Assembly: GCF_017348835.2 (NCBI RefSeq)
Contig: NZ_CP071375.1
Strand: one strand, 5' to 3'
DNA: 64,000 nt
Origin: Escherichia coli
Lineage (GTDB): Bacteria > Pseudomonadota > Gammaproteobacteria > Enterobacterales > Enterobacteriaceae
The position numbers were made by a program, and so were the translations under genes. Of the stretch, positions 2,666 to 54,572 are shown one piece after another. The notes beneath the pieces were generated by a model. That model had not been told where the DNA came from, made no database searches, and saw only the letters and a program-made list of their open reading frames with translations. How positions within the stretch are numbered: the stretch's first letter is position 1; each line of letters starts with the position of its first letter.

Positions 2666-3922
2666 ATGCTCCATCCGCGAGCCAGAACCATGTTGTTATT
2701 ATCGCTCCCCGCCGTGGCAATTGGGATTGCGTCCAGTCTTATTCTGATTGTGGTGATGAAAATCGCCTCGGCATTACAGAATTTGCTCTGGCAACGACTG
2801 CCGGGAACTCTGGGGATAGCCCAGGATTCACCTCTCTGGATCATCGGTGTATTAACGTTAACGGGTATTGCAGTGGGGTTGGTTATCCGTTTCAGCCAGG
2901 GTCATGCCGGACCAGACCCCGCCTGTGAACCGCTGATCGGCGCACCGGTTCCGCCCTCTGCGCTACCAGGACTTATCGTAGCATTAATTCTCGGTCTTGC
3001 TGGCGGCGTCAGCCTGGGGCCGGAACATCCGATCATGACCGTCAATATCGCCCTTGCGGTTGCCATTGGCGCTCGTCTGTTACCGCGCGTCAACCGAATG
3101 GAGTGGACTATTTTAGCCTCTGCCGGAACCATCGGCGCGCTGTTTGGTACACCTGTTGCGGCGGCGTTGATATTTTCGCAAACCTTAAATGGCAGTAGTG
3201 AAGTTCCGCTATGGGATCGTCTTTTTGCGCCGTTAATGGCGGCAGCAGCTGGTGCACTTACTACCGGATTATTTTTCCATCCCCATTTTTCACTGCCCAT
3301 TGCGCATTACGGACAGATGGAAATGACCGATATTCTCAGCGGTGCAATTGTCGCGGCGATTGCCATCGCAGCAGGGATGGTCGCCGTATGGTGCTTACCA
3401 CGGTTGCACGCGATGATGCATCAAATGAAAAATCCGGTGCTCGTGCTGGGTATTGGCGGATTTATTCTCGGTATTCTGGGGGTTATTGGTGGACCAGTTT
3501 CGCTGTTTAAAGGACTGGATGAGATGCAGCAGATGGTGGCAAATCAGGCTTTCAGCACCAGCGATTACTTTTTACTGGCGGTGATTAAACTTACCGCCCT
3601 GGTCGTTGCTGCCGCCAGTGGCTTTCGCGGTGGACGAATTTTCCCGGCAGTGTTCGTCGGCGTGGCATTAGGGTTGATGCTGCATGAGCACGTCCCCGCC
3701 GTTCCAGCGGCAATAACCGTTTCCTGCGCTATTCTCGGCATCGTGCTGGTGGTAACACGCGATGGCTGGTTAAGTCTTTTTATGGCGGCAGTCGTTGTAC
3801 CCAATACCACATTGCTACCGCTGCTCTGTATCGTCATGCTTCCGGCATGGCTGTTATTAGCAGGTAAGCCGATGATGATGGTCAATCGTCCGAAGCAACA
3901 GCCACCCCACGATAACGTTTAA
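2666..3922 (+). CDS. yfeO: ClC-family putative ion-transport membrane protein
   Basis: 418-aa polytopic hydrophobic ORF; conserved position between glk and ypeC. Confidence 0.8.
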
Positions 3923-7329: not shown

Positions 7330-9519
7330 TTAATCAGCTAATGGCTGCGGGCGACCAATCAAATACCCTTGCAGATATTGCACCCCGAGCTTATGCAATA
7401 ACGCCTGCTGCTGTTGCGTCTCGACAAACTCCGCAACCACACTCAATGACTTCGCTTTCGCCAGATCGGTAATTGATCTCACAATCATCGCATCCAGCGT
7501 ATTCGTGACGATATCTTTCACAAAGACACCATCAATTTTGATGATATCAGCCTGCAAACGCTTTAACCGTTCGTAGTTGGCATAGCCGGTGCCAAAGTCA
7601 TCAATCGCAATCCGGAAGCCAAACTTATGCAGTTGCTCGATGTTGTACATGCTGCTTTCTGCGTTAGAAAACGCCTGCTCCTCGGTGATCTCAAGAATGA
7701 CCGCCTGCGGGGAGATGTGATAACGCTTAAACAGACGAATAATCCGCCCGGCAATATTCTTTTGTAGCAGCGTGAGCGGCATTAAATTAACTGAAAAGCG
7801 CGGGCCTTTTTTGTCGCAAGGGTGTGTTGCCAGCCACTTCAACAAGGATTCCAGCACTTGCAAATCAAAACGCGCGCTAAGGTTAAACTGAGCAATAAGG
7901 GGCAGAAACTTATCCCGGGTCATAATGCCGCCGTCATACTTCAGTCGCGCGAGGATCTCATCATAACCTTCACCCTCTTTGTTGCGAATTGGCTGGGCGT
8001 AGAGCAGCAAATCACCCTGATCTAACGCCGTGCGAATGGTATTCAGCAATAGCACTTGTTTAGTGGTCTGCCCGGAAACCATCTCCTCTCTGCTATCCAG
8101 CGCCAGCACATGATGATGTGCGCAGGATTGCTCCGCCAGCCAGCTTAACTGCCCCAACAAGGGTTGCAGGGTTTCCTGATTTCCATCAAAACGCCCCCAG
8201 GCAGCACCATAGCCCATATCCAGCCCGGTATTGTTCCAGTGAATTTGCCGACTATTCAGGATGTTAACCATATGCTGGAGTCGCCCTTCCGTTTCCGGCC
8301 CGCTCAGCACTAACAGCAGTTCACTACCCGGCAATTGATACAACTTTTCGTTTTCCTGCATCAACGGCAGCAGCGTACGGTAAATTGATCGGATACAGTG
8401 AACGCGCATCATTAACCCGTAATGACGACTCATAAACTCAAGATTATCAATGCGCAGGCAGCAAAAACTCTTGCCCGCCTCTTGCTCCGGCGCTTGTTCC
8501 AACGCACGAAAATTGGGTAGGAGCGTTAACGGATCGGTCAGCGCCTGCAAATGCCAGCGTCGATTAAGCCATTCACTGCGATGATAAATGCGCACCATAT
8601 AGAGCAGGCAAACGCTAAAGGAAATCAGCACCGCAAGAATAAATGCCAGCGAATATTCGGTTTCCACCCCTTGCAAAAAGTTCTGGTTGTAATTCAGCAG
8701 GCAAAGCGTTGAAACAGCCCAGGTGAGATTTAAAAACGGATAGCGAAGCTTACCGACCCCGAGGGTAAAGATGATGAAGAAAACGGGTACCAGGTAACCG
8801 GCAATAAAGTCGTTTTCATAAGGTGTGCACAACAGAAGTAGCAGCACGCTTAACGCTGCCAGCCAGCTTAAGGTAAATGCGCGTTTCTCTTTGCCCAACG
8901 ACGGAGCGATATCCCTGCGCCACAATATCTGCGCAAAGTGGGGACTTACAATCATGCGAGTGAGATAGTAGAAAAGCATGTTGTAAATCAGCACAGCGGT
9001 GAAAAGGCTTAGTAAATCAACAACCGTGAAAATGGCATCCGCATCGCCGAAAAAGGTGGATATCTTTAGCGGGAAATCAAAGAAGCTCCCCACAAAATAC
9101 ATGCTGCATTTGATGCCGATCGGCGTCACCAAACCAAGCCAGAACAGACGTTGCCAGACATATCGGCTGGTCAATCCATAACGCCAACGCGTCCCCAGCT
9201 GCCAGCGTAATATTGCGCAGGCACACAACACGACAAACGTCTGGCTGCCGAGCATGACCGCAGTCTGTAAAAAAGAGAGATGAAAGTTCCACAGATTGGT
9301 GCAAAACATCCCGCATAAAACGGGAACGACACCGCGCCAGCCAAAGATAAACAAGATTGACAGCATTACGCACAGTGGCATCCACGCCAGAAAGATATAA
9401 CTGGAATGGATAATGGCAAGTGGCGAAATAAAACGGGATAGCTGAATAAGTACCACGGTGAGCGTAAACGCTAGTGTGAATATCTTGATATTTTTTATCA
9501 GGTTATGCTCCACAAACAT
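7330..9519 (-). CDS. pdeA: membrane-anchored GGDEF(degenerate)-EAL c-di-GMP phosphodiesterase
   Basis: ORF 7330..9579 trimmed to MFVEHNLIKNIKIF... start (ATG complement 9517-9519); N-terminal TM segments, C-terminal EAL domain (EITEEQ...IAIDDFGTGY... motifs). Also known as yfeA. Confidence 0.85.
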   Translation of the reverse strand: MFVEHNLIKNIKIFTLAFTLTVVLIQLSRFISPLAIIHSSYIFLAWMPLCVMLSILFIFGWRGVVPVLCGMFCTNLWNFHLSFLQTAVMLGSQTFVVLCACAILRWQLGTRWRYGLTSRYVWQRLFWLGLVTPIGIKCSMYFVGSFFDFPLKISTFFGDADAIFTVVDLLSLFTAVLIYNMLFYYLTRMIVSPHFAQILWRRDIAPSLGKEKRAFTLSWLAALSVLLLLLCTPYENDFIAGYLVPVFFIIFTLGVGKLRYPFLNLTWAVSTLCLLNYNQNFLQGVETEYSLAFILAVLISFSVCLLYMVRIYHRSEWLNRRWHLQALTDPLTLLPNFRALEQAPEQEAGKSFCCLRIDNLEFMSRHYGLMMRVHCIRSIYRTLLPLMQENEKLYQLPGSELLLVLSGPETEGRLQHMVNILNSRQIHWNNTGLDMGYGAAWGRFDGNQETLQPLLGQLSWLAEQSCAHHHVLALDSREEMVSGQTTKQVLLLNTIRTALDQGDLLLYAQPIRNKEGEGYDEILARLKYDGGIMTRDKFLPLIAQFNLSARFDLQVLESLLKWLATHPCDKKGPRFSVNLMPLTLLQKNIAGRIIRLFKRYHISPQAVILEITEEQAFSNAESSMYNIEQLHKFGFRIAIDDFGTGYANYERLKRLQADIIKIDGVFVKDIVTNTLDAMIVRSITDLAKAKSLSVVAEFVETQQQQALLHKLGVQYLQGYLIGRPQPLAD

Positions 9520-44939: not shown

Positions 44940-45127
44940 AAGTCGTTCCCTCAGGAAGAAGTGATGAGTGACATTTTTCACAGCCTTCAAACAATTCTAT
45001 TTCATCGTTAACCCTTGTCCTGTAAGGTAATTACCTTAGTACGCCCGCTATTCATCCTGCCGAACGCAACCGAACGCGCCGGATACATGAGCGGGGTTAT
45101 CGAGTCGTTAGATCGAGGTATCCGGTT

Positions 45128-46333
45128 TTGAGCAAGACACCACTGACAGCAAAGGCCATAGAGGCCGCACAACCGCAGGACAAGCCCTATAAACTCACCG
45201 ATTCACAGACACCTGGCCTGTTTTTGCTGGTCCATCCCAACGGCAGCAAATACTGGCGATTCCGGTATTGGATAGACAAGAAGGAGCGGTTACAGGCTAT
45301 TGGGGTGTATCCGCTGATTAGCCTCAAGGAAGCCCGCAAACGCGCCACAGAGAGCCGTTTACTGATAGCCCAGGGAATTGACCCAATGGATTTGGCACGC
45401 AAGGAGAAAGCCATTGATGCTCTTAATGCTATCGCCAGTTTTAAAGCTGTAGCAGAAGACTGGATGGCTACCAAGGTGAGCGGATGGAGTGAGAGCTATA
45501 CAAAGCAGGTCAGATCGGCACTAGAGAAAGATGTTTACCCCGTGCTAGGTAAGCGGTCGATAGTGGATATAACGGCCCGTGACGTGCTGGCGTTACTACA
45601 GAAAAAGGAGCGCACCGCACCGGAACAAGCCAGGAAATTACGCCAGCGTATCGGGGAGATCTTCAAATTTGCCGTTATCACTGAACTGGTTAACCGGAAT
45701 CCGGTTGCAGATCTGGATACGGCACTGAAAGCCAGACGCCCAGGCCATAACGCGTGGATACCGATTAATGAAATTCCGGCCTTCTACAAAGCCCTTGAGA
45801 GAGCTGGGAGCGTTCAGATTCAGACGGCAATACTTTTGCTCATCCTCACAGCTTTGAGGACGGCAGAATTGCGCCTGATGCGCTGGGAATGGGTAGATCT
45901 GCAATCGGCAACAATCACATTGCCCGCTGAAGTCATGAAGGCCCGCCGACCGCATGTTGTCCCGCTATCCCGGCAGGCGGTCGAGCTATTACAGGACCAG
46001 TTTACCCGCAGCGGATACAGTGCTTTCGTCTTTCCTGGCCGATTCATGGACAAGCCACTTTCAGCCAGTGCCATCCTTAAAGCCCTGGAGCGTATCGGAT
46101 ACAAGTCGATAGCCACAGGCCACGGCTGGCGGACCACCTTTTCAACGGCGCTTAATGAGTCCGGCAGGTACTCACCAGACTGGATCGAAATCCAACTGGC
46201 CCACGTTCCGAAAGGCGTGCGCGGTGTTTATAACCAGGCGGCCTACCTGAAGCAACGACGGGCCATGATGCAGGATTATAGCGACTGTATTGATTCAATA
46301 CTGGCTGGTGACGGTAATCCACTTGAACCGTGA
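45128..46333 (+). CDS. intZ: P4-type tyrosine integrase
   Basis: 401-aa ORF (TTG start in the ORF track); N-terminal arm-binding-type domain (DKPYKLTDSQTPGLFLLVHPNGSKYWRFRYW), catalytic region with HGWR and terminal ...GVYNQAAYLKQRRAMMQ tyrosine motif. The symbol is assigned by position only. Confidence 0.85.
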   Translation: MSKTPLTAKAIEAAQPQDKPYKLTDSQTPGLFLLVHPNGSKYWRFRYWIDKKERLQAIGVYPLISLKEARKRATESRLLIAQGIDPMDLARKEKAIDALNAIASFKAVAEDWMATKVSGWSESYTKQVRSALEKDVYPVLGKRSIVDITARDVLALLQKKERTAPEQARKLRQRIGEIFKFAVITELVNRNPVADLDTALKARRPGHNAWIPINEIPAFYKALERAGSVQIQTAILLLILTALRTAELRLMRWEWVDLQSATITLPAEVMKARRPHVVPLSRQAVELLQDQFTRSGYSAFVFPGRFMDKPLSASAILKALERIGYKSIATGHGWRTTFSTALNESGRYSPDWIEIQLAHVPKGVRGVYNQAAYLKQRRAMMQDYSDCIDSILAGDGNPLEP

Positions 46334-46884
46334 ACTATAAGGCCGGGTTTATACTCAATATCGACGGTTGAAGCGCTCAAAAAACAACCGTGACAACCGT
46401 CACAAATATGCAATGTCAATGATCTGAATCAATAAATTGCCAATTCTTCGTTTCCACTTTCGAATGAAAGCAAGATGCAGAAAAATAAATCACCATGAAA
46501 TCATGTACTTATTAATTTTGACCAAATGGTCCAAAATATCCTCGGTGAATCCATGCTTGCCACAGCCAGATGATTAATATTTAACCCATGACTTTCGAAT
46601 GAAAGTAAATTGATAAAAAAGTCAGTGTACACTAACTAAATCGAATATTTTTTGCGCTATGTTTGAATGATAATTGAGCAAAACTTTCGCAAGGTGTGAC
46701 GATGTGAGTAATTAATTTTAACTCTACAATAAACCCATCCCGACAGGGATGGTACCTGGAGCGGAGCGAGAGGGACCATCCCCCTGTTTTTAGTCTTTTG
46801 AAGTTAGTTTTTTAAGGGATTAAATAATTTTGCCTCAAATGAGACCACACCATACAAGGCCAAAAACAATCAGTATTGCGTGGA

Positions 46885-47400
46885 TCAGGCTGGTTTTTTA
46901 ACTATATACCCCGTATGCCAAGGATTCTGATCGCGCGGCATCGGGTCCGCCTTGATAGACTCATAAAACTTATCAGCCATCTCAGCCACAAACTGTACAG
47001 AGGATTCGAACTCAGCGTTTTTGTGTGCGGGAGGAAACCAGAAGTCTAACACGCCAGCATTTCTATTTTTACATACAGCGTATATAAGATAAGCATCAGA
47101 TGTAGGGGTAACTTTTTCGAAACCACCGGGACCATAACGACCAGTAGACCAGTCATCCCAGCATTGTTCTGTCCCGCTATAGCCGTACTGATTGGTATAA
47201 AGACCAATATTTACATGGACTTTACGTAAGTGGATAGGATATACACACGGGGGTTTATGGAAAAGAGTATCCTTTCCAAAATCAGGATGATGTCCATATC
47301 TCCAATGATAAATAAACGAATCCTTAAAGCTCTTTAATTCATCGTTTGTTTTAAACTTATTATCACTGTAGACCTTACCAATAAATTCATTCTGGACCAT
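46885..47400 (-). CDS. YafO-like toxin-family protein (putative toxin of a two-gene module)
   Basis: 171-aa ORF from ATG (complement 47398-47400); motifs DFGKDTLF, PIHLRKVHVNIG, SDAYLIYAVCK, FWFPPAHKNAE and VAEMADKF line up with YafO motifs as I recall them (FGRDALY, HIHL, EAHLVYCQG, KPEPHKLA, MAEAF). Confidence 0.5.
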   Translation of the reverse strand: MVQNEFIGKVYSDNKFKTNDELKSFKDSFIYHWRYGHHPDFGKDTLFHKPPCVYPIHLRKVHVNIGLYTNQYGYSGTEQCWDDWSTGRYGPGGFEKVTPTSDAYLIYAVCKNRNAGVLDFWFPPAHKNAEFESSVQFVAEMADKFYESIKADPMPRDQNPWHTGYIVKKPA

Positions 47401-47734
47401 CAAAGCTTACACTCTTTAAGCGTTCTTCTCGTGAATCGAATAAATCTTTTGATAAATCACACGCTTGTGTGAACGTCATTTTTTTTACTCGTGGTACAGC
47501 CATAGGCGAGGCCGCATTCATCACTTTGTTTTCTTCGTGATCGAGAGTAGCAGTGTAGCGAAACATGACACTTTTACCGCGCACCAACTGGTATCCTAGT
47601 CGATACGCTAACGCGTCAAGATGCGTCAGACGATTTGTTTTACGCAAGCCAGTCATAGCTTTTGGCTTACGAGTGCGCACAGAAAGGGATTTCCCTTCTC
47701 GCTTAGTCGCAAACAAAGTAACTATTTTTGACAT
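47387..47734 (-). CDS. small basic protein, putative partner/antitoxin of the downstream toxin-like gene
   Basis: 115-aa ORF from ATG (complement 47732-47734) with GGAGAT RBS; stop lies 10 bp before the downstream gene start; Lys/Arg-rich N-terminus. Confidence 0.45.
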   Translation of the reverse strand: MSKIVTLFATKREGKSLSVRTRKPKAMTGLRKTNRLTHLDALAYRLGYQLVRGKSVMFRYTATLDHEENKVMNAASPMAVPRVKKMTFTQACDLSKDLFDSREERLKSVSFDGPE

Positions 47735-48706
47735 GGTATCTCCTGACATCAATCTGCTAAGGCCATTGTGCCTTGTTTGAATAGTAAACTATTCGCCCAA
47801 TCTACACCAGTGATTTTCTTGACGCCAATAGTAAAGGCAGCATTGCCCACCACAGGCAGACAATGAGACTTCAGATAGCGCACCTTCTATCGCGCACGCG
47901 CTCAATAAAACCAACGACACCGCCATCCTGCCTGACCGATGTTTTTAACCAGCGTATACAGAGAAACAGACAACAGCATGAAATCAGCGTATATCCAGGT
48001 GCAGACGGCACTATCACACAACGCACAGCAGGCTGAGGTGAACACTCAAGCAACTTTATCCCCGCCACCGACCACCGCAAACTATCATGACCGTGCCAAA
48101 TTCAAAAGGAATGGCCCATATAACGCGATGAACACACATAAGCGCTACACTTGCTTACCTGAAAACTTCACAGCGTCACAGCGCGTTTTAGACACGTTAA
48201 AATTAATGAGATTTCATTAAATTTTCACCAGACACCGGAACAAGCCTATAAATCAAAAATGAATTACCGACATGCGCCGCTGGCGTTCACAGGAAGAATC
48301 AATAACTTAGGCCAATGGCGAAAGTTAAACAAAATCAAGAACTTGCAGAAATGCAGGATGAAGCAGCCGATGTGCCCCGTTGGATTTTACCAGAAGAATC
48401 AACAAGTTAGACTCGGTGATTTCACCGACTCCTGCCGGACTACTGACCAGATCGAACCATTCCCCAAATTTGGGGAGAGCAAACCACACGCAGATCCTGC
48501 CAGGCTATTTCATCCCACCGCATCACGTATTTGCACACTTCCCCGCTGACGTGCTCATTTTGATAACGAGTTACCCGCTAGCCCTTGCCACATCACCATT
48601 TGTCGCGCTTTGACTAAATTAGCGACGTGCCTGTTATAGCGATACGCTAGTTATGCAGAAAGCGCGACATATCCAGCAACCATGCACCCTACAGAGGAAT
48701 TGAATC

Positions 48707-49159
48707 ATGCGAGACATAGACTGGTCAGCTATCCCTTTCGATGATTTACCGCCCTGGCATCTGGACTGGGACGTAGACCAACGCGAAAACGCGACATATC
48801 CAGCAACCACCAGCATTACAGCGATGCGCCCCGTAAAGCCTAAGAAATACCAGGCAACCGACCTGATAGCTCACCTCAAAGCTATTGGCGGCGTATTTAC
48901 CGGAAGCAAAGACACGCTTGCACATGAAGTATGGCCCCGGAAGACGCCAGCGGGTCGAACCGTTTTACGCTTACTGACCGAACTGTCAGACAACGGCGAC
49001 GCTGTAGTGATTAACCGTGGTCGTTGTGGCGTGGAAGTTATTCTGACGCCGAAGAACAGGGCACAGACGCCTGAATTAAGCGCACCCAAGCAAATGCATA
49101 GCCAAAAATTAAGTCCAGCAGAACGCGTTATATCGCTTTTAAATGGCATCGGATTTTAA
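48707..49159 (+). CDS. hypothetical island protein
   Basis: 150-aa ORF with GAGGA RBS 8 nt upstream of ATG; no recognisable family. Confidence 0.5.
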   Translation: MRDIDWSAIPFDDLPPWHLDWDVDQRENATYPATTSITAMRPVKPKKYQATDLIAHLKAIGGVFTGSKDTLAHEVWPRKTPAGRTVLRLLTELSDNGDAVVINRGRCGVEVILTPKNRAQTPELSAPKQMHSQKLSPAERVISLLNGIGF

Positions 49160-49185
49160 TTAATTTTGATGTGGTAATTGCAGGC

Positions 49186-49212
49186 AAAAAAATCCCGCCG
49201 GAGAAAGCGGGG
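49186..49212 (-). terminator. rho-independent terminator oriented for minus-strand transcripts
   Basis: Minus strand reads CCCCGCtttctccgGCGGGattttttt (on plus strand the A-run precedes the hairpin). Confidence 0.55.
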
Positions 49213-49446
49213 AAGTGAAATCAATCGTTGTAGTTATAGATCACATTTTGGAGTTGAGGATGGCTAATCCTCGCTAATATTATCGCGCCGTTATGTGATG
49301 GGCGCAATTATTTCTTACTAATTAAAAGTTTTGTAAATATTACAGAATATCCCTTTTCACTATATGGTAAAAGATGTGAAACAGGGACATGAGGAATATA
49401 ATATTAAGTATCAACAGTAATGTTGGTCTTTAATTTCATTCAGGGC

Positions 49447-49489
49447 GCGGTGAGGGTTTTCTCCATATTTTTCCTCACCGCTACTTTTT
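49447..49489 (+). promoter_or_regulatory. terminator/attenuator-like hairpin in the alpA leader
   Basis: GCGGTGAGG-17 nt loop-CCTCACCGC followed by tacttttt, immediately upstream of the alpA RBS. Confidence 0.45.
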
Positions 49490-49501
49490 CGAGGTGAGAA
49501 C

Positions 49502-49693
49502 ATGAATGATAGCGAATTAATGACGGTGAACGAGGTAGCCGCTTTATTCGGCGTTACCCGTCGGACAATATTCCGGTGGATGAACAAGATTAAAGGCTGG
49601 CCCGTCCCGGTCAGTCCGATTGGCTCAAGAATTAAGTTTATCCGATCTGAGATTTTGGAATTCTATAAAAACAAAGGCGCTCGCCACCAATGA
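49502..49693 (+). CDS. alpA: AlpA-family phage/island transcriptional regulator (excision control)
   Basis: 63-aa ORF MTVNEVAALFGVTRRTIFRWMNKIKGWPVPVSPIGSRIKFIRSEILEF: typical AlpA HTH signature; RBS GAGGTGAG. Confidence 0.8.
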   Translation: MNDSELMTVNEVAALFGVTRRTIFRWMNKIKGWPVPVSPIGSRIKFIRSEILEFYKNKGARHQ

Positions 49694-49832
49694 AAACAGC
49701 TACTGAGATTATCAAATAACCTATTGATTTAAAAAGCTAGCTACCGCAATTTCTGAAGGAATAGGCAGCATGAAAATCAAAGCAAACACAATTAAAGAAA
49801 TAACATCAATCAAAGTAAAAGGAGCAGATGCC

Positions 49833-50096
49833 ATGCATTCATTAGATAGTTATTTTCAGCGCACGACAGCCCCTAAATCAGCCGCCCAGGAACGCCGTGA
49901 GGAATTCCAGGAAAAAGTGATGCGTTCTGCTGATTATATTGCGGACAAGTTCGCGGAAACGGTTCGGCCACTTGTTGATGAAGTAGCTGATAAACTTCAG
50001 TCTGAAATGCCGGAAGACATGGAAGGCACTGCAAAGGCGCGACTCCTTTTTGAATTAAGTCGTCGTTTCGGCGTGTCAATAAGCACTTTTAAATAA
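49833..50096 (+). CDS. hypothetical small acidic protein
   Basis: 87-aa ORF from ATG 49833 with AAAGGAG RBS 8 nt upstream. Confidence 0.5.
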   Translation: MHSLDSYFQRTTAPKSAAQERREEFQEKVMRSADYIADKFAETVRPLVDEVADKLQSEMPEDMEGTAKARLLFELSRRFGVSISTFK

Positions 50097-50113
50097 TCGG
50101 AGGAGGAAAGACA

Positions 50114-50656
50114 ATGGACGCATTTGATGTACTGACAAACAAAGGCGATGAACTGGTAGCACAGCGTGATAAAACCGCCAACGAAGGGGAACGCGCACTG
50201 TTAAATAAGCAGATTAAAGCGATCCGTATGGCCCAGTTTAAATTAATCAGCAATGAAGTTATCGAAAAAATTAAACCGCAGATCCCACAAATCGTTGCTG
50301 ACGCTATTAAAGCCGCCGGACTGGAGAAACGCATTGCCGGGCTGAAAACGAACGCAGAGAAAATGGAGATGCACAAACAGAGCGGTGCTCCGACTCCGGA
50401 TGAGTACTTCTCACCGGATGCTGAGTTTATGGCGCAGGTTGAGGAACGTCTGGGTAGCTGTCTCACCGAGGAACAGTGTCGCTATTTTGATGGAGTGGAT
50501 AGTTCGGCAGGTATTGACCTGAACTCGTATTTCGGTCGTGAAATTGAGCATTTTGATGCCGCCCCGTCTATGCCGGAGCCAGAACCAGAAATGGCCGCCG
50601 ATCCTGAAGCTGAGCAACGGAAACGCGTATTCAATGCGATAGGGATTCGGTACTGA
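50114..50656 (+). CDS. hypothetical protein (phage-associated)
   Basis: 180-aa ORF with strong GGAGGAGG RBS; acidic C-terminus. Confidence 0.55.
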   Translation: MDAFDVLTNKGDELVAQRDKTANEGERALLNKQIKAIRMAQFKLISNEVIEKIKPQIPQIVADAIKAAGLEKRIAGLKTNAEKMEMHKQSGAPTPDEYFSPDAEFMAQVEERLGSCLTEEQCRYFDGVDSSAGIDLNSYFGREIEHFDAAPSMPEPEPEMAADPEAEQRKRVFNAIGIRY

Positions 50657-50664
50657 TCGGATAA

Positions 50665-50688
50665 AAGAAAGCCGGGAATTACCCCGGC
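50665..50688 (-). terminator. hairpin terminator, T-tract on the minus strand
   Basis: GCCGGGaattacCCCGGC preceded on plus strand by ataaaagaaa (minus strand: hairpin then tttcttttat). Confidence 0.45.
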
Positions 50689-50707
50689 TGACTTAACAAT
50701 GTGACCA

Positions 50708-51082
50708 ATGAACAAATCGGACAAGACAAACAGGATAAGCAGTCTCGAAACAATGTTCGGGAACTATATTAGCACAAGTCCGGAGAAAATCATCATGTTG
50801 GCACTACGCATCATGCAGGGCATCGCTAAGACCCTCGCAGAACATGTCTTAGACCTGAAACATTCGCCACTGAGCAAACAGGCCATGAAGCGCCAAACGC
50901 TTCGTCTGTGGGCTGAATATTCGCTTGGAACTATCAATAAAATCATCGACATGAAATCGGGGCCGAGCAACCAGAGCGCGGAGGAAATGGAGTTCATCAG
51001 GCGTTTAATTCTCATTCGCAGAGACATTCATAGCCAGTTACACAGCGTGGGAATCGATATTAATGATGGGACGGGCGATTAA
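50708..51082 (+). CDS. hypothetical protein
   Basis: 124-aa ORF; weak RBS. Confidence 0.45.
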   Translation: MNKSDKTNRISSLETMFGNYISTSPEKIIMLALRIMQGIAKTLAEHVLDLKHSPLSKQAMKRQTLRLWAEYSLGTINKIIDMKSGPSNQSAEEMEFIRRLILIRRDIHSQLHSVGIDINDGTGD

Positions 51083-51120
51083 TTTTCGGACAAGTACTAT
51101 GCGCGCGCGAGGAGCTGAAC

Positions 51121-51351
51121 ATGAAGCAAGATATTGCAGACAGGCTGGAGATACTCGAAGGCCAGCGGGCAGAAGCGAAACAACTACGTAAGCAGGCCAG
51201 AAGAGCGCACAGGAACTACGAAGCAGAATCACTGACCGCTTTCATCAACTTCACAAACCGTTGCATCCTGGAGTGTTACAGGGAGGATGCAGAAAACTGG
51301 CTGGATTCATTGCCAGAACAGACTCTGCATGAACTGAACGGCGACCAGTAA
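51121..51351 (+). CDS. hypothetical small protein
   Basis: 76-aa ORF with GAGGAG RBS 6 nt upstream. Confidence 0.5.
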   Translation: MKQDIADRLEILEGQRAEAKQLRKQARRAHRNYEAESLTAFINFTNRCILECYREDAENWLDSLPEQTLHELNGDQ

Positions 51352-51638
51352 ATAAATCCAGTACGTTTCCCGCAGTGCGCATAACGTACATTATGTGAAA
51401 AACGATATGGATATATATCAGTCTGACTTCAATGAAGAAAACGGACTTCCAGCATCAACCACAAAGAAGTATGGCTAATGCAGCTTTATAAGCCATTGAT
51501 TCTATTAAACGATATTTTTTGTGATTGGTTGAAGCAAACCAAAACACGATGCCACTGAAGCGTTAATAAACTGTTTCAATGTGAAATTATCAGAGTAAAG
51601 AACAATTTGGAGGGTCCGCAAACGCGGATAACAATATC

Positions 51639-53819
51639 ATGAGTGGAAATCTCGGGACCATATACTACGAGGTCGATGCCCGCACTGGGAAACTTCTTAT
51701 CGCGCAACAGCAGGCGGAAGAGGCGTTCGATCGCATTGAACGAGGAGCGCGGAAGGCTGATAGCGGCGTCAAAAAGTTAAATACGCAGATGACTAAAACA
51801 TCAGCCGCAGTCAAAACCAACCTTTCCCCGGCAATCCGTAACGCATCATACCAGATCGCAGACCTTGCCACTCAATTGCAGATGGGCGGTAATGCGCTTC
51901 AGGCGTTCGCTGTGCAGGGTGCGCAGTTATTAGCTGGCTTTGGCACGATGGGCGCGGTAGCTGGCGCGGTGCTGGCTATCGCTGGCGCTATGGGTGGAAG
52001 CCTGGCACAAGGCGCTGATAGTGCAGCCGGATCGGTTGAGTATCTGGACAAGGCGATCACCAAACTGAACGAGGTCATAGCTGTAAATGAACAGGGCGTG
52101 ACGGTGATGAGTGATAGTTACGCCAGACTTTCTAAGGTTAACGCTGAAGTAGCGAAACAGATGCGGAACATGGCTGAAATTCAGGCAATTGCAGCACTGC
52201 GTGACCTGAAAGAACAGGCAAGCCAGGCACAGGGGGAAATGTCGTCATTCTGGCGCAGCTTGCAGGGTGGTAAAGCTGACGCAGCAGCAGCAGCACAGGC
52301 ACTTGATGATCTTGGAATCACAACCAACGACTACAAAGAGGCGATAGCCATACTGAACGCCAATCAGCCGGATACACAGGCGCAAATGGCAACGCTAGCT
52401 AAGTCCGTGATGTACATAGGCGAGGAATACAACCTGACAAACCAGCAAGCCTACGAGTTCATCCGAGCACTAAATAGGGCCGCGACAACGAGAACGCCGG
52501 AAGCCATGCAGGAACTATCGGGCTTCATGCAGGTATTGCTACAGGACACCGAAAACGGTAACGAGGCATTCCGTGAACTGGCTATCAAATTCGTTGATGC
52601 ACAAACCAAAGGCGCAATGCTGGAAGACCAACTAAACCGACTGAAAGGCGCTATCAGTGACGCAGCCACAGAAGCCAGAAACGCCAATTTTACCACTATG
52701 CTCAACACCGTCGCCGCACGCCTGGCAGCCATTGAGCAAGGTTGGGAGGCAGGCGTTAGGATGCAGATGAAAGCCCAGGGCTACACTGAAGAGCAGATCG
52801 ATGAATATGTGAACATGGAAACGGCGTACCGTGATGCAAAAGCCGCTTTGGACGAGAAGAATAAGGCCGACCGTGAAGCTATTGCGCTATCCAAACGCCA
52901 GGCCGCAGAAGCAGCCCGCAAGGCAAAACAGGAAGAAGCTGAAGCACAACGCAAGGCCAAACAGTTAGCCGCGCAGAAGGAGCAGGCAGGACGCTTTACG
53001 CAGCAAGTAATGACGGAATACCTGACGACCGTAGATCCGGCAACAGGCAAGGCGTTTAACCCTGCCGCACAAGTAGAAATGCAGGAGCAGCAGAAGAAAG
53101 CGGCGCTGGATAAATACAGACAGTTGGGCGTCCTGGATGAACAGCAGTACCAGAACACGCTAACCGCCATCCAGAAAACCGCGTCAATGCGCCGCCAGCA
53201 AATCATCAAAGACGAGGCCGACACGTTATTCAACAATCAGCAACAGTTGATCGGCACATTTGGCGATTTCTTCGGTGAACTGTCTGGAGTCATAGCAGAC
53301 GGTGCAGGTGAGCAAAACGCGGCATATCAAGCGCTATTTGCTGTGCAGAAGGGTTTTGTATTGGCATCAGCAGCTTTAAGCCTTCAGAAAGCGCTTGCTG
53401 AGGCAAACGCCTTGCCTTTCCCGGCTAATCTTCCGGCCTATGCGCAAGCTATGTCAGCAGGCACGCAGATCATTTCAGCTATTCGTGGAATAGCTTTCGG
53501 TGGCGGACGCTACAACGGCGGCGCGGTTGGTGCTGGCAACCTGTACCGCGTGGGTGAACACGGTAAGCCTGAGATATTCAAGGCGAACAATGGCAGCCAG
53601 TACATGATCCCAGGTGATAACGGTCGCGTGATAAGTAATCGTGACATTGGCGGCGGTGGCGGCGTAACAATCAACAGCCCGATCACCATTAACACTACGA
53701 ATGGCTTCAGTGATGAAGACTCAAGGCGTCTTGAGGAAGCGATGAAGCGCGTAGCTATGGGCGTTTGCAGGCAGGAGTCAACCAGACCGGGAGGAATGTT
53801 AGCCCCGCGCCGTCGTTAA
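51639..53819 (+). CDS. phage tail tape-measure-like protein
   Basis: 726-aa ORF: glycine/alanine-rich hydrophobic segment (LLAGFGTMGAVAGAVLAIAGAMGGSLAQGADSAAG), long A/Q/E/K-rich coiled-coil middle, C-terminal G-rich region with YRVGEHGKPE motif. Confidence 0.7.
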   Translation: MSGNLGTIYYEVDARTGKLLIAQQQAEEAFDRIERGARKADSGVKKLNTQMTKTSAAVKTNLSPAIRNASYQIADLATQLQMGGNALQAFAVQGAQLLAGFGTMGAVAGAVLAIAGAMGGSLAQGADSAAGSVEYLDKAITKLNEVIAVNEQGVTVMSDSYARLSKVNAEVAKQMRNMAEIQAIAALRDLKEQASQAQGEMSSFWRSLQGGKADAAAAAQALDDLGITTNDYKEAIAILNANQPDTQAQMATLAKSVMYIGEEYNLTNQQAYEFIRALNRAATTRTPEAMQELSGFMQVLLQDTENGNEAFRELAIKFVDAQTKGAMLEDQLNRLKGAISDAATEARNANFTTMLNTVAARLAAIEQGWEAGVRMQMKAQGYTEEQIDEYVNMETAYRDAKAALDEKNKADREAIALSKRQAAEAARKAKQEEAEAQRKAKQLAAQKEQAGRFTQQVMTEYLTTVDPATGKAFNPAAQVEMQEQQKKAALDKYRQLGVLDEQQYQNTLTAIQKTASMRRQQIIKDEADTLFNNQQQLIGTFGDFFGELSGVIADGAGEQNAAYQALFAVQKGFVLASAALSLQKALAEANALPFPANLPAYAQAMSAGTQIISAIRGIAFGGGRYNGGAVGAGNLYRVGEHGKPEIFKANNGSQYMIPGDNGRVISNRDIGGGGGVTINSPITINTTNGFSDEDSRRLEEAMKRVAMGVCRQESTRPGGMLAPRRR

Positions 53820-54317
53820 CCAAATCCCACGCCAGGGGGATAGACTGGCGGCCTTTCAATTCCGTTGAAACGACGGAATCAAACACCCCGATTCAGGGTA
53901 TTTAAACGTCGCGTTTCACGACATTTATCTAAGTCATTGATTTATATTGTAACTCATAATTGAGTTGCGCCGACCATCCCGCCACAAACGCTCCTACGCA
54001 AAAATTCCCTCACAATTACCCTGCCAATTTTCCAGATTTCACGTATACGCGCCTATATCCCCGCCACCGGATACACGCCCGCTTATACCGGATACTTTTA
54101 TGCCATCATTATTAAATCCATTAATAATCATCAAACCATAATTAGCACAACTTATAATCGAACAAAAAACACACAACATTGATAATGATTTTTTCTGGTT
54201 ATACTTATCTAAAAAAGTGGTATGGGAAGTAACTTATTGTTTTGTAATTACAAATTTATTGCGTGGTCAGATGAACAGACTTGCGCACCTCCCGAAAAAC
54301 ACGCGAAAATCGAAGTG

Positions 54318-54427
54318 TTCTTTCTTTTTTTGTTTTTTATTTTTTTATTTTCTCTTTTTCTTCTCTTTCCGGTTCTCTTCTTTTTCTGGTTTTGGTTTTT
54401 TCCTTTTTTATTTTTATTCTTTCTTCA
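54318..54427. repeat. polypyrimidine (T/C) low-complexity tract
   Basis: ~110 bp almost exclusively T and C on the plus strand (tctttctttttttgttttttatttttttattttctc...). Confidence 0.9.
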
Positions 54428-54572
54428 GGGTTGTGATCAAACACACCAAAACATTTTCGCCACAAAAGCGTTAATTTCATCCTGCCAGACCATTCACTTT
54501 CACCGGATACACAGCCGGATATAATCCCGCTAACACCCAGCCACCCAGCATCACGCCTGATAACTACCGTAT

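Follow-up and report, generated by a model that had tools for sequence, protein, structure and literature searches.

A constrained pyrimidine tract carrying an H-DNA motif lies just outside the P4-type attachment site of CPZ-55-family islands in Escherichia coli

Three described systems bear on the locus analysed here. The first is CPZ-55, an island of Escherichia coli K-12 whose integration target and 8 bp core are already known: an 8 bp duplication, the same as the one described below, has been reported at the K-12 element (PMC6379469), and the eutA/eutB junction into which it inserts has been called a prophage hot spot (PMC6652756). The second is P4, whose attachment site (attP) carries, beyond its far-arm repeats, an additional cis element (crr). 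The third is the H-DNA motif, a homopurine/homopyrimidine mirror repeat; most characterised examples are eukaryotic or synthetic, and are (TC)n or G-rich. In this work, we analyse the right arm of a CPZ-55-family island within a 64,000 nt stretch of the E. coli contig NZ_CP071375.1 (hereafter, the window). This arm contains a discrete, non-coding pyrimidine element of ~80 bp that is strongly constrained, includes an H-DNA motif, and is located immediately outside a P4-type attP. No description of the constrained pyrimidine block, its mirror repeat, or the module of which they form part was found in the searchable literature.

The element belongs to a T/C tract at positions 54318–54427, inside the 753 bp gap that separates the stop of a tape-measure-like gene (53819) from the eutA stop (54573). 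The tract consists of 80 T, 18 C, 7 G and 5 A (i.e., it is 89% pyrimidine and 73% T), and is the top-scoring 110 nt pyrimidine window of the 64 kb. By comparison, 75% marks the 99.9th percentile, and no purine-rich stretch exceeds 69%. Its longest homopolymer run, in the window allele, is T7. In P4, KplE1, K-12 CPZ-55 and 253 kb of unrelated bacterial loci, the maximum purine or pyrimidine fraction per 100 nt is 0.67–0.87, and no comparable tract was found in the att-site surroundings of P4, KplE1 and K-12 CPZ-55. An initial annotation of the window, made from its letters, had described such a tract, called it unusual, and placed it ~150 bp from the eutA stop near a presumed att junction. Each of these points holds: the distance from the end of the tract to the eutA stop is 146 bp, and the att core overlaps the eutA stop codon. 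A superficially similar sequence, ~4 kb of T-rich low complexity in CP088517.1 (L183; the 6.5 kb plasmid pE16EC0790-1), was set aside as a match of composition only; no homology is involved, and an assembly artefact is the probable source.

About nine alleles of the tract were recovered from genomes, plasmids and metagenomes. Their comparison divides the tract into two parts:

54318–54349, plus strand: variable 5' third of the tract, in which alleles differ by T-runs, a deletion and substitutions.
54350–54427, plus strand: constrained core and 3' part of the tract, with zero substitutions relative to the O25NM and TOK001 lineages.

Differences in the 5' third comprise runs of T6, T7, T8 or T10, a 7–8 nt deletion, and the changes G>GG and A>CA. 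Downstream of position 54350, the order of the interrupting bases is the same in every lineage, and the few differences in T-run length are fixed changes of one or two T between deep lineages. The sequences on either side have diverged far more. Relative to O25NM, 72 of 358 aligned flank positions are substituted (20%), against zero in the block 54350–54427 (Fisher p 3e-7); relative to TOK001, the corresponding counts are 36 of 359 (10%) and, again, zero (p 1e-3). Since the lineages have their own fixed T-run lengths, the block has not simply been copied between them. Taken together, the aligned alleles point to constraint on positions 54350–54427, rather than to hypermutability or neutral decay.

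Two accounts of the tract are addressed by the same alleles. Firstly, it could be a neutral, low-complexity hitch-hiker beside the att site, conserved by recent ancestry or by recombination between alleles. It is indeed dispensable, in that K-12-type islands do without it; the surrounding module is mosaic, so recombination does occur here, and alignments of low-complexity sequence can hide substitutions. Nevertheless, the interrupting bases are identical, run by run, across lineages in which both flanks differ by 10–20%, and the lineage-specific run lengths speak against simple copying. We therefore regard neutrality as improbable. The initial annotation had proposed that absence from all related islands and an invariant length, with no structural signal, would point to neutral decay; roughly one in three family members carries the tract, and its near-invariance reflects constraint, not decay. 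Secondly, the tract could be a hypermutable contingency locus that switches a neighbouring gene by T-run length, as the same annotation had suggested in calling it slippage-prone. Like contingency loci, it contains T runs, some of allele-dependent length, and the comparison of lengths among strains that had been recommended does show variation in the 5' third (T6, T7, T8 and T10, and a 7–8 nt unit). However, only the few fixed changes described above are seen in the core and the 3' part, which make up a near-invariant two thirds of the tract. In addition, runs in the window allele are interrupted and no longer than T7, many genomes share identical BLAST scores within each allele class, the tract is stable within lineages, and it lies neither in a conserved open reading frame (ORF) nor in an identified promoter spacer. 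A contingency function is thus very unlikely.

The centre of the constrained block is a perfect 15+15 nt homopyrimidine mirror repeat at positions 54353–54387, TCTTTTTCTTCTCTT-TCCGG-TTCTCTTCTTTTTCT, whose arms are 100% pyrimidine. It is made up of the following parts:

54353–54367, plus strand: left mirror arm, TCTTTTTCTTCTCTT.
54368–54372, plus strand: 5 nt spacer, TCCGG, the would-be triplex loop.
54373–54387, plus strand: right mirror arm, TTCTCTTCTTTTTCT.

By the sequence definition used here (homopurine/homopyrimidine arms of >=10 nt, mirror symmetry, and a spacer of <=8 nt), this is an H-DNA motif, having 15 nt arms, a perfect mirror and a 5 nt spacer. It is the sole purine/pyrimidine H-DNA motif, and the sole perfect mirror of >=12 nt, in the 64 kb; no purine-rich target for a pyrimidine clamp was found elsewhere in the window. 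Mirrors of this length are also uncommon among sequences of the same composition: the observed one is longer than those in 98–99.7% of tract shuffles (p 0.003–0.02). The suggestion in the initial annotation that the tract might form H-DNA thereby gains a concrete basis, albeit one predicted from sequence. The motif resembles characterised H-DNA in its pure-pyrimidine arms, its perfect symmetry and short spacer, its position inside a longer homopyrimidine run, and its rarity in the surroundings. It differs in being T-rich, short, bacterial and carried by a mobile island, in that part of the conserved block lies outside the mirror, and in being known from sequence only.

The mirror can be followed through the alleles by noting the lengths of the T runs in its two arms (in the order outer left, inner left; inner right, outer right):

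Window-type allele: (5,3; 2,5), perfect arms of 15 nt.
O25NM and pMAR2 type: (4,3; 2,4), perfect arms of 14 nt.
TOK001, L052 and L189 type: (3,4; 3,3), perfect arms of 14 nt.
L097, a metagenome contig that ends inside the tract: (4,3; 3,5), perfect arms of 13 nt.

In the three deep alleles, T-run changes in one arm are matched by changes in the other, and a perfect 14–15 nt mirror is retained. A 17 nt direct-repeat reading of the same bases, reported by TRF, was rejected, as the O25NM and TOK001 alleles break the direct repeat and keep the mirror. In a permutation in which the observed run-length changes were re-dealt at random, success being defined as mirrors of >=14 nt in both derived lineages, p was 0.04–0.08 unconditionally and, depending on the slippage model, 0.013–0.13 conditional on the core being hit. 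Covariation of the arms is what selection for a fold-back triplex would produce, but in a sample this small it is suggestive only. The specific proposition that the mirror repeat has been selected because it must fold as a triplex, serving as an H-DNA-based boundary or attP accessory element, is one that we consider rather doubtful. If it were true, the matched T-run changes would play the part in DNA that compensatory base-pair changes play in RNA, and would amount to comparative evidence, of a rare sort, that a non-B DNA structure is functional in bacteria.

The possibility that the tract is conserved for its coding content was examined next to the alleles. Mechanical ORFs of 46–100 aa exist in the 753 bp gap, and the tract is spanned in each allele by ORFs of 47–108 aa. 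Some of them are annotated by RefSeq or by other gene callers, including a 47 aa minus-strand ORF in some genomes and Lys/Glu/Arg-rich hypothetical proteins of varying length and frame on the purine strand of the tract (window 54337–54480; L184 459–689; L004 3777–3929). Read on the plus strand, such a product would be a Phe/Leu-rich membrane peptide; read on the minus strand, it would be a peptide rich in Lys, Glu and Arg. Yet a six-frame comparison of 13 alleles found no ORF conserved in start, frame and stop on either strand, and the minus-strand ORF terminates short of the tract in the majority of alleles. Indels of 1, 2, 7 and 8 nt are tolerated, and synonymous-type TTT/TTC changes are missing. 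Databases, PHROG included, hold only a few near-identical copies; in a set of 5.8 billion proteins, the minus- and plus-strand ORFs matched only three and five near-identical E. coli entries, respectively. Because stop codons are rare in T-rich and A-rich sequence, open frames are expected here by chance. A small protein is accordingly hard to credit, and the short hypothetical proteins over the tract are most likely annotation artefacts. The initial annotation had reached the same view of the Phe/Leu-rich ORFs, and of the ~750 bp gap as lacking any credible ORF.

A role at the RNA level deserves more consideration. On the plus strand, a U/C-rich, G-poor transcript could load Rho or destabilise elongation, so that island transcripts would end before reaching eutA in antisense orientation or, in an excised circle, int. 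On the minus strand, the A-rich tail of the eutA message could bind Hfq or S1 via (ARN)n-like repeats. Several features are in keeping with a Rho utilization (rut) site: C exceeds G (18 against 7; 16% and 6%), there are 18 YC dimers, RNA from both strands is predicted to be unstructured (folding was no better than in shuffles, z +0.33 and -1.16), and the tract lies in untranslated sequence after a gene, in a region between convergent genes. No intrinsic terminator was found in the arm of the window when four alleles were scanned. Among Rfam families at E values up to 1, the only match was to the Hfq/Crc sponge CrcZ, on the minus strand. Against this, C makes up only 16% of a tract in which U dominates, and a much better C-rich, G-poor segment, more typical of rut sites, lies 250 nt upstream at 53945–54070. 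A terminator-like hairpin, the only one in the scans, already stands ahead of the module in ES5-type islands. Rho would not load on the minus-strand RNA, in which C is scarce; the CrcZ match is weak (E 0.34, 14.8 bits) and falls far under the gathering threshold of 95. Promoter-like sites in the arm are no commoner than chance, with nothing consistent across the four alleles. Finally, binding based on composition needs neither conservation base by base nor mirror symmetry. An RNA-level role therefore strikes us as somewhat unlikely. The tract itself is neither a gene nor a small RNA, nor is it a phase-variation tract.

The significance of the tract's position depends on the layout of the island. 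The eut operon lies on the minus strand of the window, and the 9.6 kb island, 44959–54572, sits between eutB (start 44939) and eutA. It is bounded on both sides by the 8 bp core TCAGGAAG, and the junction in an island-free strain reads CAT-aagtcgttccc-TCAGGAAG-gaaatgcg. The features that define its ends are:

44951–44958, unstranded: attL core, TCAGGAAG, 11 nt upstream of the eutB start (from the island-free junction and PMC6379469).
54573–54580, unstranded: attR core, TCAGGAAG, overlapping the eutA stop codon (from the island-free comparison and PMC6379469).
54573–55976, minus strand: eutA, a host gene convergent with the island cargo genes.
45128–46333, plus strand: intZ (RefSeq name), a P4-family tyrosine integrase gene (PHROG 1 integrase, E 8e-69).
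45079–45087, plus strand: candidate arm-type site CCGGATACA of the int-proximal arm, a CCGGATAYA match 121 nt from the left core, positioned as the P4 near-arm repeats.
45117–45125, minus strand: inverted arm-type near-copy GGTATCCGG, ending 3 nt before the intZ start and assigned by analogy with P4.
54503–54523, plus strand: tandem candidate arm-type sites CCGGATACA and CCGGATATA, with copies at 54503 and 54515 (12 nt period), 50–70 nt from the right core.

The motif CCGGATAYA has five matches in the window, against 0.55 expected. The tandem pair is invariant in all alleles, K-12 included. Two further copies of CCGGATACA, at 54067 and 54084, were dropped as arm sites; in other cargo types, an unrelated GC-rich hairpin occupies this place. 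The remaining copies read as candidate arm-type integrase sites in the P4 arrangement. As in P4, whose Int is 35% identical to IntZ (E 4e-70), tandem far-arm repeats with a 12 nt period lie 50–70 nt from the core. A direct and an inverted repeat lie by the int start, which in P4 is overlapped by the inverted repeat, and an extra cis element is found beyond the far-arm repeats (crr in P4, the tract in the island). Two differences stand out. The P4 crr consists of 120 bp direct repeats of octamer sites for the alpha protein, and P4 encodes the alpha replicase; the island has a pyrimidine tract, and no replicase was detected among its proteins. Moreover, the core and target of the island are the 3' end of eutA, not a tRNA gene. 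With K-12 CPZ-55, the island shares its integration site, 8 bp core, a homologous intZ and the proximal arm sites, yet in K-12 only ~148 bp separate yffS from eutA, the cargo is different, and the whole AT-rich module is absent together with the tract.

A distance of 75 bp separates the end of the tract from the outermost conserved arm site, so that the tract falls outside the arm-site span. The initial annotation had proposed that it might mark a recombination or replication-related site. It does lie close to the att junction, but, by analogy with P4, it is outside the outermost arm-type sites, and K-12 CPZ-55 excises without it. A related reading is that the tract is an array of protein-binding sites in ordinary B-form DNA, extending the P arm of attP for an AlpA-like excisionase, Int, IHF, Fis or H-NS, and thereby controlling the direction or efficiency of recombination or silencing the island. 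The tract adjoins the tandem arm-type sites, the island encodes, at 49502–49693, an AlpA/excisionase-like helix-turn-helix (HTH) protein, conservation is base by base, and the islands seen at secondary sites (see below) are those bearing the module. A/T tracts are, furthermore, preferred targets of H-NS. However, the interruptions fall every 6–8 bp, out of phase with the DNA helix; a search for the IHF consensus inside the module found none, and there is no repeated binding motif beyond the T runs. The att sites of P4, KplE1 and K-12 CPZ-55 also lack a comparable tract, and the last of these excises anyway (PMC3105296). On balance, a B-form binding array appears fairly unlikely.

The tract could, alternatively, be a replication or packaging site of the excised island, either as an unwinding element or as a site recognised by a helper phage. 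Its position equals that of the P4 crr, GC content over 54100–54450 is only 25–35%, TT[A/G]T motifs are present on the T-rich strand, and a phage tape-measure homologue among the cargo hints at interaction with a helper phage. Against these points, no homologue of a primase, helicase or initiator was found among the island proteins in PHROGs (remote homologues being possible), there are neither iterons nor good DnaA boxes, and no similarity was detected in 50,697 phage records or in viral contigs. We judge such a function unlikely.

The tract belongs to a larger unit of the island's right arm, where the initial annotation had correctly placed it. This unit, and the sequences around it, comprise:

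51639–53819, plus strand: tape-measure-like gene (726 aa; E 2.8e-103 to PHROG 1538, tail length tape measure protein), with which the cargo ends; the non-coding arm follows.
53820–54095, unstranded: cargo-specific non-coding stretch, common only to tape-measure-type islands and including the CCGGATACA copy at 54067.
54096–54572, unstranded: conserved right-arm module of the CPZ-55 island family (~477 bp), found beside differing cargo.
54096–54290, unstranded: AT-rich left part of the module (GC 25–34%), divergent and mosaic.
54291–54317, unstranded: conserved box CCCGAAAAACACGCGAAAAT-NAAGTG adjoining the tract, retained in all three flank contexts.
54428–54502, unstranded: weakly conserved spacer that separates the tract from the arm sites, with 15 substitutions in 71 positions, plus indels, relative to O25NM.

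In KSC9 and MB19, unrelated sequence replaces part of 54096–54290. The tape-measure homologue stands alone, with no other tail genes on the 9.6 kb island; other island products include a YafO-type toxin pair, the AlpA/excisionase-like HTH protein mentioned above, and several proteins of unknown function. Immediately downstream of the tape-measure gene, the segment 53945–54070 contains 35–38% C and 9–12% G, and is a better candidate Rho-loading site than the tract.

Among 5426 complete E. coli genomes, 145 contain the module, and another ~300, including K-12, have in common with these only the last 70–90 bp, arm sites included. Its neighbours vary, with at least four cargo sets: (i) the tape-measure gene, (ii) yffS and a hypothetical gene, (iii) an HTH gene, and (iv) gadC-murI-IS1. 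In ES5, the intrinsic-terminator-like hairpin abuts the module start. A GC-rich terminator hairpin with a T run stands ahead of the right arm in both ES5 and K-12 (L005 2982–3010; L007 ~9380–9420), and the K-12 arrangement resembles a deletion of the ~380 bp module between short TGCCA-like microhomologies (cf. window 54096–54110 and 54480–54490). Beyond E. coli, no relatives of the module were found in 50,697 phage records, nor among viral contigs by either DNA anchor or integrase; a search for the arm-site motif in one genome each of 100,044 species returned 29 chance matches, none in the Enterobacteriaceae. A metagenome scan yielded at least eight true copies of the module, among which only L097 supplied an allele not otherwise seen. 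Within the scope of these searches, the module is an accessory part of the island family, confined to E. coli. It is accessory because K-12-type islands exist without it, and K-12 CPZ-55 still excises.

Module-bearing islands are not restricted to eut. The enteropathogenic E. coli (EPEC) EAF plasmids pMAR2 and pMAR7 carry a copy of the module (82% identical) that ends exactly at ...CCGTAT-TCAGGAAG in a umuC-like pseudogene, apparently a secondary site of integration, here on a virulence plasmid. The plasmid sequence holds the right part of an O25NM-type island, gadC-murI-IS1-module (pMAR2 NC_011603.1 6001–6465 and flanks; L011), in this umuC/impB-like pseudogene. In L189 (Logan SRR30347333), which has a TOK001-type tract, the end of the module is joined to different DNA (...GATAATTCATTAAATTT); this junction implies a third integration site. 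The island has moved to at least three sites.

In EC931, IS1A is inserted within the left mirror arm of the tract, flanked by a 9 bp duplication, TCTCTTTTC (L194 ~1740–1760 and 2490–2510), and a metagenome contig (L147) contains the same right-hand IS1A junction. Truncations in two other strains end at the 3' edge of the tract (MLI104K2, L013 ~2990–3000; and P0008). The tract and its edges look like a hot spot for insertions and breakpoints, and both the IS1A insertion and the edge truncations fit an exposed or otherwise unusual DNA target.

Our favoured explanation, which we offer tentatively as a possible one, is that the tract acts as a cis DNA element: a supercoil-driven triplex, or otherwise opened structure, at the island edge that hinders polymerases or shapes the attP arm. 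The functional unit would be the ~80 bp homopyrimidine/homopurine block, centred on the 15+15 nt mirror around TCCGG. The transition would be triggered by negative supercoiling, such as that left behind by transcription of eut or the island, or that of the supercoiled circle formed on excision. Half of the T/C strand would then fold onto the purine strand of the other half to give an intramolecular triplex, sharply kinked and leaving half of the purine strand unpaired; T/A runs around it may make opening less costly. The resulting structure could form a boundary at the island end that hinders polymerases entering from eutA, for which direction the purine strand is the non-template strand. Alternatively, it may determine how the neighbouring attP arm is shaped or supercoiled. 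We infer both triplex formation and its effect from the motif and its context.

A number of observations weigh against this cis-element explanation, or restrict it. Two thirds of the family members, K-12 among them, lack the module, making the element accessory, and K-12 CPZ-55 without it still excises, in fewer than 1 per 100,000 cells (PMC3105296). With no relatives outside E. coli in the phage, viral-contig and per-species searches, comparative power is limited. The arm covariation amounts to only two independent contrasts, and the L097 allele, with its 13 nt arms, breaks the pattern (although it comes from a contig end of uncertain quality). The mirror arms are short and T-rich, with four C each. 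A triplex of this kind is marginal at neutral pH and average in vivo superhelicity. Finally, the conserved 3' part, GG-T4-GG-T6-CC-T6-A-T5-A-TTCTTTCTT, has no mirror partner, and therefore a triplex alone cannot explain all of the constraint.

The work described here defines the ends of the island and its P4-type attP layout, and shows an extra, strongly constrained pyrimidine element of ~80 bp in about one third of the family. If neither a transcriptional nor a triplex-based function proves correct, the tract is still neither a phase-variation switch nor a gene, and the short hypothetical proteins that overlie it should be treated as artefacts. Ethanolamine use matters for fitness in the gut and the urinary tract. 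Should the element block or shape transcription at the island edge, it would bear on eutBCLKR expression in strains that carry it. Should its function be triplex-based, the island would provide a tractable natural system in which to study selected H-DNA function in bacteria, with the 5/5, 4/4 and 3/3 alleles serving as ready-made compensatory mutants.

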